This document shows, piece after piece, positions 15,358 to 17,310 of a stretch of DNA of 17,346 bases. The first letter of the stretch is position 1; every line of letters begins with the position of its first letter. The DNA comes from a virus. Where the stretch lies: the UHGV virus genome UHGV-1699866; one strand, given 5' to 3'. A model generated the notes under the pieces. That model was not told where the DNA came from. It searched no databases and saw only the letters and a list, made by a program, of their open reading frames with translations. The position numbers and the translations under genes are program-made.

Positions 15358-15486
15358 GCCGTTTATCCGCTAAAATCCCCTCGCTTGTGCAAGCAAGTGG
15401 GCCTCGGTTTGTATCCACGGCACCCTGTGGGTATGAATGACTGTCGTCAGGTCGCAACTGACGGCGGTCGCCCACCTTCCAGTAAT

Positions 15487-15528
15487 AAAAAAGCCACCAG
15501 CATTAACTCCACAGCGAGCAGGAGTTAA
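15487..15528 (-). terminator. Possible intrinsic terminator downstream of the 136-aa gene
   Basis: Perfect 8-bp inverted repeat TTAACTCC / GGAGTTAA (15503-15510 and 15521-15528) with 10-nt loop; T6 run on the transcript lies 10 nt after the stem, which is not canonical. Confidence 0.3.
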
Positions 15529-15591
15529 TGAGGCAGCTTTGGTTTGCGCATTATCGCAGCCCCTGATTAGCACAAGAGCTGCTGTAATGCG

Positions 15592-16002
15592 TTACGCAGG
15601 GATCAAACAGATGTGGCCGTTATTTACCTCAATACGGGAATATTCCGGCTTACCATCCACGATTCCGGTAATGACAAGTTCGCCATCAGGCGACCATTCT
15701 TCTTTGTCGTCTTCAAGTACCGCGCCTTCTGGCAAATCAATACAGGCAAAAACAGGGCAGCCAGGATGACGTTTATCCTCCATCGCAATCAGCATCGACT
15801 CACCGAACCACTCTGTGGTAGCACGGCCATCAGCCGCCTGATAGTGAATCAGATACTGGTTTTCGCCATTTGCATACTGAGCACGGGCTTGAACTTCTCC
15901 CCACTCTTCACTGATACGCATTGTTACCAGTTGGGATAATTCAAACTTAAACGGAACAGACTCTGCACCAATGGCAATCGGTTTATCTTCTTTCTTTTCC
16001 AT
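15592..16002 (-). CDS. Hypothetical cargo protein (136 aa from ATG at 16002)
   Basis: AGGTGA 5 nt upstream of the ATG at 16002-16000; the track's longer ORF (start 16071) would run through the upstream terminator hairpin, so the internal start is preferred. Confidence 0.55.
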   Translation of the reverse strand: MEKKEDKPIAIGAESVPFKFELSQLVTMRISEEWGEVQARAQYANGENQYLIHYQAADGRATTEWFGESMLIAMEDKRHPGCPVFACIDLPEGAVLEDDKEEWSPDGELVITGIVDGKPEYSRIEVNNGHICLIPA

Positions 16003-16013
16003 AACATCACCTG

Positions 16014-16043
16014 AAAATAAAAAGCCCCGCGACACCGCGAGGC
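16014..16043 (-). terminator. Rho-independent terminator
   Basis: Transcript GCCUCGCG-GUGU-CGCGGGGC followed by UUUUUAUUUU (8-bp stem with one G-U pair); lies between the 50-aa ORF stop and the 136-aa gene RBS. Confidence 0.65.
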
Positions 16044-16051
16044 TGTAAGAG

Positions 16052-16204
16052 TTACTTTCGATATAAATCAAGGCGCATTTGCTCCCGCTTAAGCCGAAAA
16101 GCCCTCTGCGCCACTAAGATGCGCCACAGGACACCAGCGATAACCACCAGCGAGATACAAAAACACACGGCCACAACCATCAGAAAAATGCCAACACCAT
16201 TCAT
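16052..16204 (-). CDS. Small membrane protein (50 aa): one hydrophobic helix and a basic C-terminal tail
   Basis: MNGVGIFLMVVAVCFCISLVVIAGVLWRILVAQRAFRLKREQMRLDLYRK; ATG overlaps the upstream stop (ATGA); below the 60-aa cutoff of the ORF track. Confidence 0.45.
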   Translation of the reverse strand: MNGVGIFLMVVAVCFCISLVVIAGVLWRILVAQRAFRLKREQMRLDLYRK

Positions 16205-16401
16205 GAAACTATCCATTCTTCAATGAATATCTCCAGTAATGTCAAGAGATACGCCGTCCCCAGCGCGGTTCCTACCGATATAGCTAAGACAAACCTCAAA
16301 GATAACGAGGTGTCTTTCGCTTTTCTCCAGACGTAAGCGCCAGCTAGAAATACCAACAAATCTCTTATTGGAAGCGGAAACCAGAACAAATCACTCGGCA
16401 T
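16201..16401 (-). CDS. Small membrane protein (about 66 aa from ATG 16401; two predicted hydrophobic segments)
   Basis: MPSDLFWFPLPIRDLLVFLAGAYVW...VLAISVGTALGTAYLLTLL...; overlaps the end of the 99-aa gene and is coupled to the 50-aa ORF. Confidence 0.45.
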   Translation of the reverse strand: MPSDLFWFPLPIRDLLVFLAGAYVWRKAKDTSLSLRFVLAISVGTALGTAYLLTLLEIFIEEWIVS

Positions 16402-16690
16402 AAGCACGATCATCTTCCGCTGCTGATTTACATGCCGCAGTTACTGATATATTGATAACCGGTGCGCTAATCGTGATGGACGACGCTGTCGGTTGACGCG
16501 ATATAACTGAACGATGGCTATCAATGAAGTCCACAATCTCATTCAGGCACTCTTTAGCTGCCTCATCGTGACTTTTTCCGTATGCTTCATGGAGGACTTT
16601 CATCCTCATCATTGCTCCGTCACATATAGTCGAAAGCGCGTAAAGCACATCACTAACCGCCATTTCTTTTTTGGTGCTTGTCGAAGGCAT
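16391..16690 (-). CDS. Hypothetical soluble protein (99 aa), first gene of a coupled three-gene unit
   Basis: AGGAGA 7 nt upstream of the ATG; immediately downstream of a terminator. Confidence 0.5.
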   Translation of the reverse strand: MPSTSTKKEMAVSDVLYALSTICDGAMMRMKVLHEAYGKSHDEAAKECLNEIVDFIDSHRSVISRQPTASSITISAPVINISVTAACKSAAEDDRAYAE

Positions 16691-16715
16691 CCCATGTTCT
16701 CCTTTGTCTGGATGT

Positions 16716-16741
16716 AAAAAAGCCCCGGCAATTGCCGAGGC
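16716..16741 (-). terminator. Rho-independent terminator
   Basis: Transcript GCCUCGGCAAUUGCCGGGGC (stem with one G-U pair) followed by UUUUUU; shares the GCCUCG...CGGGGC-U-run architecture with the terminator at 16014-16043. Confidence 0.65.
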
Positions 16742-16764
16742 TCGTTGTTCGTTATCGTTACGGT

Positions 16765-16962
16765 TTAATGCTCGCGTCGTCCGGCGACAACTTCGGATTT
16801 GTATTTCAGGTCGCCCAGCAAGAATTGCAGTTTAAGCATCTTTGCCGCCGTGTAGTTTCCTGATTCCACAACCTCTTTCATGAGGTCATAAACGGCCGCA
16901 ACATCATCAGCCAGGAACTATTTGCGTTGCTGCTCAGTCGCACGTTTGAAGGAAATACGCAT
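16765..16962 (-). pseudogene. Small ORF interrupted by an in-frame amber codon (14 codons, TAG at 16918-16920, 50 further codons); possible nonsense-disrupted 65-aa gene
   Basis: ATG at 16962-16960 overlaps the stop of the 89-aa gene (TGATG); MRISFKRATEQQRK-TAG-FLADDVAAVYDLMKEVVESGNYTAAKMLKLQFLLGDLKYKSEVVAGRREH. Confidence 0.3.
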
Positions 16963-17231
16963 CACTCATCATCTCCTGCCGCACATACAACCTCACAAAA
17001 AACATCAGCGGAATGTTTCTTTTTGAATGAATGGCGCTCAAAACCGCACTCAATATCAGGCGCAAAAACATCCACCACATACGGTCTTTCAGAATGTTTG
17101 TTTTCCCAACGATAAACCGTAGTGACGTTGAAATGTTTTAACGCTTCACGGAACTCAACGCTGCCCGTCAGGTTTTTTGAGGTCAGGTATTGCAGGAGGT
17201 TTTTTACTACTTCACGGTCTTGTACTTTCAT
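16962..17231 (-). CDS. Hypothetical protein (89 aa), Cys-containing C-terminus
   Basis: GGAG upstream of the ATG; coupled to the downstream small ORF; no motif recognised. Confidence 0.45.
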   Translation of the reverse strand: MKVQDREVVKNLLQYLTSKNLTGSVEFREALKHFNVTTVYRWENKHSERPYVVDVFAPDIECGFERHSFKKKHSADVFCEVVCAAGDDE

Positions 17232-17281
17232 CGGGTTATCTCCGGTTTAACCAGGGCGGGTATCGCTCGGTTTCGGGTATA

Positions 17282-17310
17282 ACCATAGGAAATTTTTTCC
17301 CACCTGTAAA
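17282..17310 (-). promoter_or_regulatory. Candidate sigma70-type promoter (TTTACA, 17-nt spacer, TATGGT) upstream of the 89-aa gene
   Basis: Minus-strand -35 TTTACA (plus 17305-17310) and -10 TATGGT (plus 17282-17287); AT-rich context, so pattern match only. Confidence 0.3.

Follow-up and report, generated by a model that had tools for sequence, protein, structure and literature searches.

A fast-evolving accessory gene module with small membrane proteins in the late arm of an enterobacterial phage-plasmid

Comparison of a 17,346-nt stretch of the virus genome UHGV-1699866 (the window) with its relatives marked three overlapping genes, here termed A, B, and C, as fast-evolving accessory cargo and a diversity hotspot of a phage-plasmid lineage. 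A-B-C is a non-essential module, and its distribution identifies A plus C as the conserved core, with B being optional. The window region was 100% identical to circular E. coli plasmids of 47 to 50 kb and 99% identical to the Yersinia phage vB_YpM_39, and E. coli ATCC 25922 harbors a copy at 98% identity. The element, ~47 kb in size, of myovirus type, and found in Enterobacteriaceae, is a phage-plasmid, 70 of the 71 places at which it occurred in complete E. coli genomes being on plasmids; its lineage is common in clinical E. coli. Literature searches with the phage and plasmid names returned no functional information. Element records encoded holins, a GH108 endolysin, an Rz-like spanin, and ParB-like proteins, and their terminase shared ~28% identity with lambda gpA.

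All genes of the window were carried on the minus strand. Plasmid NZ_CP064105.1 (L001), which is near-identical to the window, supplied the sequence upstream of it, and the combined gene order was as follows: a terminator, two holin genes, endolysin, spanin, a tRNA, and an MT-A70 methyltransferase; then a promoter-like site, an 89-aa gene, a 65-aa gene, terminator T1, A, B, C, and terminator T2; and, after T2, gene D, two ParB-like genes and later the terminase, which is followed in the window by an extended series of other large ORFs in the same orientation. The lysis cassette, comprising two annotated holin-family genes, the GH108 endolysin, and the Rz-like spanin (PHROG 1026), lay ~3 kb upstream of A-B-C, the tRNA, the methyltransferase, and two other genes being located in between. 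The features referred to below are:

16765..17310, minus strand: upstream unit, with a promoter-like site at 17310-17282 that has an AT-rich upstream stretch, the 89-aa gene, and the 65-aa gene
17231-16962, minus strand: 89-aa gene
16962-16765, minus strand: 65-aa gene
16714..16743, minus strand: T1, intrinsic terminator directly upstream of A (stem 16743-16720, U-tract to ~16714)
16698..16704, minus strand: Shine-Dalgarno sequence of A, AAGGAGA, 7 to 8 nt before ATG 16690, read from the sequence
16391..16690, minus strand: gene A, 99 aa, soluble protein
16201..16407, minus strand: gene B, 68 aa from GTG 16407, two predicted membrane helices
16052..16204, minus strand: gene C, 50 aa, start ATG 16204 in an ATGA overlap with the stop TGA of B
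16014..16044, minus strand: T2, intrinsic terminator after C (stem 16044-16023, U-tract to ~16014)
15592..16002, minus strand: gene D, 136 aa, PHROG 1935, downstream neighbor

The three ORFs and both terminators were confirmed at the places given by a prior sequence-only reading of this DNA, as was its description of the genes as tightly coupled. B (from GTG 16407) overlaps A by 17 nt, and C overlaps B by ATGA. The GGAGA of the A Shine-Dalgarno sequence was kept across all lineages. For B, alternative in-frame starts exist at ATG 16413 (70 aa) and ATG 16401 (66 aa); GTG 16407 is the most likely and best-supported start, because it lies 6 nt after the Shine-Dalgarno sequence GGAAG and because the same GTG starts B in variants with a 151-aa A, where A ends just before this GTG and no other start is available. 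The C start at ATG 16204 aligned with the MDYV start of its orthologues, and an upstream ATG at 16216 would make C 54 aa. Translational coupling of A-B-C is thus real, given the conserved B start and a C ATG that both overlaps the B TGA and aligns with the starts of distant orthologues. B was unannotated in RefSeq/PGAP and GenBank phage records (window 16201-16413, minus strand) but is listed by other depositors as a hypothetical protein, with its two most frequent sequence forms on 940 and at least 1000 contigs; its absence from RefSeq records is an annotation gap. The practical value of this work as things stand lies in correcting that annotation and in a corrected picture of the terminators that punctuate the late arm.

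Diverged relatives were recovered by using the neighboring ParB gene as an anchor, together with a match to a Salmonella plasmid, which yielded four further lineages; a scan of genome contigs with ParB returned only unrelated, distant ParB genes. These Salmonella/Citrobacter-type relatives of the phage-plasmid hold diverged orthologues of A, B, and C. Both A and C were present at the same place in all four diverged relatives with the module, namely L010 (A 251 aa, C 55 aa), L021 (A 123 aa, C 50 aa), L050 (A 97 aa, C 50 aa), and L022 (A ~246 aa, C 50 aa). B (67 aa) was found in L022 and was missing from L010, L021, and L050, so that conservation of the trio as a unit, proposed earlier as a check, held for A and C only. 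B of the window and its L022 orthologue were 40 to 47% identical, depending on the alignment, and shared their length and hydrophobic pattern while synonymous sites were saturated. C was 29 to 47% identical between lineages, with dN below dS at depth, and residues F7, L8, R40, and E41 were invariant across the orthologues of L010, L021, L022, and L050. This retention of length, hydrophobic pattern, and motifs at saturated synonymous sites identifies B and C, alongside A, as genuine protein-coding genes. That B and/or C are conserved frames that go untranslated, leaving A as the sole functional gene, is extremely improbable in our estimate: PGAP does not call B, and dN/dS within E. coli is not clearly below 1, but the frames have been kept at 30 to 47% identity and their start contexts are conserved as well.

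The accessory nature of the cargo, already proposed from the sequence-only reading, was borne out by rates of change, A, B, and C diverging faster than the flanking ParB, D, and 89-aa genes. Between lineages, amino acid identity was 79 to 81% for ParB, 49 to 70% for the 89-aa protein, and ~50% for D, compared with 21 to 26% for the N-terminal hairpin domain of A. In E. coli, ParB was at least 99% identical in 69 of 70 records and the B-C segment in 22 of 69, the segment being found in 69 genomes versus 70 with the ParB gene of the element. Within-E. coli dN/dS ranged from 0.2 to above 1, values that are noisy because divergence is too low. Recombination breakpoints were located in A, downstream of the hairpin, and within the 3' end of C. 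In the phage vB_YpM_41, a 1-nt deletion (TGTGGCGC to TGT-GCGC; L003 2359-2534) frameshifts C and leaves a 33-aa, helix-only product. The same truncation seems to be present in vB_YpM_44, whose matches were identical in form. Both are plaque-isolated phages with the host recorded as Yersinia pestis; unless the deletion reflects a sequencing error, plaque growth does not require C.

To assign function, A, B, C, D, and their orthologues were scanned against Pfam, PHROGs, PADLOC, and NCBIfam, none of which gave a named function. A matched two uncharacterized phage protein families, phrog_8319 over its full length (2.5e-66) and phrog_14707 over residues 1-65 (1.6e-40). PADLOC-DB gave zero matches for A, B, C, or D at E values up to 1, no holin family in Pfam, PHROG, or NCBIfam matched B, C, or their orthologues, and a PDB sequence search returned nothing. 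Foldseek comparison of the A hairpin model with viral and PDB libraries gave no match below E = 0.6, the hairpin being generic. The prior view that no nameable family applies was thus matched by the Pfam, PHROGs, PADLOC, NCBIfam, PDB, and fold searches alike, and searches for homology to a characterized lysis or housekeeping family likewise found none. When A, C, and the 251-aa A of Salmonella type were used as queries, word-indexed searches of 5.8 billion proteins retrieved only this lineage, and an exhaustive search, in which a profile of 23 A-family sequences was scored against every one of 1.84 billion representative proteins, retrieved 10 relatives. As far as these searches reach, the A family is restricted to this phage-plasmid lineage.

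Consistent with the earlier description of one soluble and two small membrane proteins, A had no hydrophobic segment, B had two helices, and C had one. Residues 11-63 of A form a confident antiparallel two-helix hairpin (AlphaFold, pLDDT 92 to 94 over residues 11-60), and residues 64-99 a low-confidence tail with the beta-prone motif SITISAPVINISV. Across the family, the hairpin was constant and the remaining parts were shuffled: some members carry a helical insert, some a ~70-residue domain that is winged-helix-like on a weak, sub-threshold match only, and many have a beta-prone SITI.AP.ITI-type motif at their C-terminal end; in one distant protein, this motif is located at the N terminus. 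A of the window is the minimal form, consisting of hairpin and motif and lacking the ~70-residue domain. The AlphaFold model of the 251-aa form (pLDDT 44.7) was too poor for use. B comprises two moderately hydrophobic helices around the basic loop RKAKDTSLSLR (4 K/R) and has an acidic end; its predicted topology is N-out/C-out. C comprises a 22-residue, strongly hydrophobic helix (hydropathy >3) followed by the basic tail RILVAQRAFRLKREQMRLDLYRK, whose 23 residues include 8 K/R and 2 D/E and which, by the positive-inside rule, is predicted to be cytoplasmic. B has no cysteine, and the cysteines of C lie mid-helix without a lipobox. A spanin role was considered and rejected on the grounds that there is no lipobox cysteine and no long periplasmic coiled coil (the C tail being 23 residues), and that a separate Rz-like gene exists.

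T1 (10 bp, ~-18.8 kcal/mol for a 32-nt fold, U6) and T2 (9 bp, ~-16.6, U5) were the two strongest terminator-like sites on the gene strand of the whole 17-kb window. They share AGCCYCG..CGGGGCT, which occurred nowhere else in the window and was expected 0 times in 200 shuffles. To call them near-identical, as the sequence-only reading did, was an overstatement, given that 15 of the 22 hairpin positions match: the two have their U-tract and both stem ends in common, G-U wobble included, and the top of the stem is swapped GC/CG. Similarly, its claim that terminators bracket the unit stands for the window and fails as a general description, T2 not being constant among variants. T2 was absent from the L003/L005 variant and, judging from the same C end and extended D, probably also from L006. 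In the Salmonella-type relatives L010, L021, and L022, a terminator of different sequence replaces it. In the L003/L005 variant group, ~290 nt in place of T2 extend D at its N terminus. Across the A-B-C region, T1 together with the Shine-Dalgarno sequence and start of A was the only stretch conserved as DNA in the Salmonella/Citrobacter-type relatives. Neither T1, T2, nor the conserved non-coding element of these relatives matched an Rfam family.

This non-coding element of ~260 nt, found in relatives only and absent from the window, is flanked on one side by an additional terminator that follows the 65-aa gene and on the other by T1 (L007 1158-1489; L010 3715-4050; L022 3053-3381; L021 3297-3601; L050 ~440-790). 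It was 76 to 91% identical across lineages, while the adjoining A was only about 25% identical in protein. RNAalifold folded it into a long hairpin, but with only 1 compensatory pair in 5 sequences; it had no consensus promoter and, as noted, no Rfam family, and its layout recalls the lambda PR'-6S-tR' arrangement or a put-type leader. The window appears to have arisen by a deletion here between two terminators, each ending in CGGGGCTTTTTT. In the window, the 65-aa gene also carries a premature amber codon at 16920-16918 (GAG to TAG, codon 15), leaving a 38-aa remnant ORF; the gene is intact in L001.

A consensus scan found no sigma-70-like promoter in the 26-nt gap between T1 and A or inside the unit; the scan was simple, and activator-dependent promoters are possible. 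Because a promoter-like site precedes the 89-aa gene and none was seen between T1 and A, T1 is likely the terminator of the upstream, promoter-bearing 89-aa/65-aa pair. The layout of terminator, Shine-Dalgarno sequence, and ATG is shared by the holin gene, A, and D, the last of which has its Shine-Dalgarno sequence and ATG immediately after T2, such that terminators punctuate the whole arm. Outside the window, at L001 2764-2791, a strong terminator (GAAGCCCTGCC..GGCGGGGCTTTTTTTT) is located directly before the Shine-Dalgarno sequence and ATG of the first holin gene. In lambda, a terminator directly before the lysis genes is the tR' arrangement, and Q provides terminator-resistant late transcription. 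By analogy, the terminator before the holin gene suggests that this arm may also be transcribed late in a terminator-resistant manner; no Q-like antiterminator was recognized among the five genes upstream of the holin gene. A-B-C would then be silent or very weakly expressed in the lysogen and made late. T2, on the other hand, fits expression in the lysogen, as it would be useful only if ordinary, non-antiterminated transcription crosses A-B-C.

The proposal that A-B-C is moron-type cargo therefore survives in part. The genes are accessory and fast-evolving, include small membrane proteins, and belong to no nameable family, but most of the features of a self-contained moron were missing: no promoter was detected immediately upstream, GC content was ordinary (A 0.463, B 0.437, and C 0.473, against 0.437 for the window and 0.43 to 0.49 for neighbors), presence was near-universal, and T1 likely belongs to the genes ahead. 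There was no insertion between genes that are adjacent in relatives, only B showing presence and absence, and the occurrence in 69 of 70 E. coli genomes and of A and C at the same place in four diverged relatives argues against a sporadic insertion. Like phage morons in the Hendrix/Juhala sense (HK97 gp15, lambda bor, lom), A-B-C is small, non-essential late-arm cargo with small membrane proteins followed by a terminator, here the 3' intrinsic terminator T2 of the window. Unlike them, it has no detected promoter and typical GC, and it occupies the same place in essentially all relatives. A-B-C is thus of a kind familiar in phage genomes, and evidence that its mechanism is unusual is thin.

Other known systems offered partial parallels. 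In lambda RexA/RexB, a cytoplasmic protein is likewise encoded beside a small membrane protein, and the variable soluble partner could be a sensor; there was, however, no sequence similarity to A-B-C by PADLOC or Pfam, RexB has four helices and RexA 279 aa, and lysogens express rexAB from the immunity region, whereas A-B-C sits behind a terminator in the late arm. Regulators of lysis timing (the phage 21 S21 pinholin, T4 RI/RIII, P1 Lyd) resemble B, C, and A in size and layout, A-B-C shares strand and arm with the lysis cassette, and A-like genes abut lysis genes in two distant phages. Yet no homology to these regulators was found, the module is ~3 kb from an apparently complete lysis cassette, and B, with its predicted N-out/C-out arrangement, is unlike the S21 pinholin in topology. 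C is a small membrane protein with a charged C-terminal tail, as holins are, a feature that is generic, and it is not encoded beside the endolysin. With two holin-family genes, an endolysin, and an Rz-like spanin in the element, a lysis role is not required of A-B-C.

We infer the A-C contact, the membrane topologies, the timing of expression, and the biological role as follows. The A hairpin would be a scaffold, probably for dimerization, that carries interchangeable C-terminal modules, these being a short beta-prone tail in the window and, in other variants, a helical insert and/or a possibly winged-helix-like domain. C would be a single-pass inner-membrane protein with its basic tail facing the cytoplasm, B an optional two-helix partner packing beside C in the bilayer, and A would dock, by its hairpin or its tail, on the cytoplasmic tail helix of C. 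Docking would allow the variable modules of A to act at the inner membrane. Given a strong terminator ahead and no promoter of its own, A-B-C would most likely be made only when RNA polymerase reads through T1, either in terminator-resistant late transcription coming from the lysis cassette or through low-level leak of the upstream promoter. The most likely role would be a late membrane function, for example tuning of lysis timing or blocking of an incoming phage, rather than that of a toxin expressed in the lysogen; toxin, exclusion, and abortive-infection roles are nevertheless possible. Taken as a whole chain, a membrane-tethered A-B-C module with A docked on C, produced from read-through late transcripts and acting late at the inner membrane, is our preferred reading, held tentatively and at somewhat less than even confidence. 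Should a role in lysis timing or phage exclusion prove true, a very small modular system would be added to the phage membrane effectors, along with a tractable example of how domains are exchanged on a hairpin.

A soluble protein paired with small membrane proteins would also suit a conflict module expressed in the lysogen, in which A is a sensor with swappable recognition modules and C, with or without B, depolarizes the cell or blocks DNA entry, resulting in superinfection exclusion or abortive infection as for lambda RexA/RexB or HK97 gp15. Rapid divergence and domain swapping of A are expected of an arms-race recognition component, T2 ends the unit in the window, and the truncated C of the plaque-isolated phages indicates a unit dispensable for plaque growth. 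We nonetheless consider such a module rather unlikely, as no promoter separates A from a strong T1, PADLOC found no matches, GC is ordinary, the unit is near-universal in the lineage instead of patchy, and the 99-aa A of the window lacks the larger putative recognition domain. That the genes form an undescribed two- or three-component phage-plasmid conflict system, whereby a dimeric A hairpin with exchangeable recognition modules gates the single-pass C and so excludes or aborts rival phages, appears decidedly unlikely.

Gene neighborhood raises a different prospect, that the A family is an accessory of packaging or DNA handling that works with D and the ParB-like proteins upstream of the terminase, with C as a mere anchor. 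A-B-C does precede D, the ParB-like genes, and a lambda-gpA-type terminase, and A-related genes adjoin a small terminase in one distant contig (L048) and a D homologue in another (L053). A of the window, however, has no winged-helix-like domain, the assignment of that domain is itself sub-threshold, C is truncated in viable phages, and we know of no role for membrane partners in packaging, all of which makes this explanation improbable. An addiction toxin is more doubtful still: C would be hok-like, its translation coupled to the upstream frames, and would kill cells that lose the prophage-plasmid. The likeness to hok/mok/sok consists of a ~50-aa single-helix protein with a charged tail, a start whose coupling to an overlapping frame upstream mirrors that of hok to mok, and a plasmid replicon, the element living as a plasmid in 70 of its 71 E. 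coli places. Unlike that system, A-B-C comprises three protein genes placed behind a terminator in a phage late arm, C showed no similarity to known type I toxins, and a search for an antisense RNA gene over C gave no convincing promoter or terminator and no Rfam match. Just one promoter-like site was seen on the plus strand (15911-15940); it is located within D, ~100 nt past C, and is followed by neither a U-tract nor a plus-strand terminator.

D may be part of the same functional neighborhood as the preferred membrane-tethered A-B-C module. Among variants, D varies at both ends (87, 136, or 237 aa, including L003 2551-3264) and is thus another mosaic gene; in L008, a different protein, annotated DUF2513, occupies its position. 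Two contigs of distant phages with lambda-like head genes, L048 and L053, encode proteins whose similarity to the longer A forms concerns the C-terminal part of these. On L048, the A-related gene sits after the spanins and immediately upstream of the small terminase, and its start is overlapped by ATGA with an ORF of 45 aa that encodes a single helix and a basic tail; this ORF and C were not detectably homologous (hhalign probability 0.8%). On L053, a holin-containing cluster precedes the A-related gene, and a clear homologue of D directly follows it. These contigs support an association of A-type proteins with small membrane proteins, D, and the lysis-terminase junction, a shared function not being thereby established.

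DNA conservation extended to the most distant relative in the 234 nt that separate D from the first ParB-like gene (15358-15591, minus strand): in L023, whose ParB shares only 59% identity, 146 nt of this gap align at 75%. Within the gap, a perfect 10-bp inverted repeat, CATTAACTCC/GGAGTTAATG, precedes GGCTTTTTTATT. The gap may serve as a promoter/operator or a terminator, or it may have a part in packaging. In L048 and L053, many frames translate to GPRAH or ARGPT owing to a repeated GC-rich palindrome (e.g., AAGTGGGCCCGCGGGCCCACTT) scattered between genes, apparently a REP-like host element.
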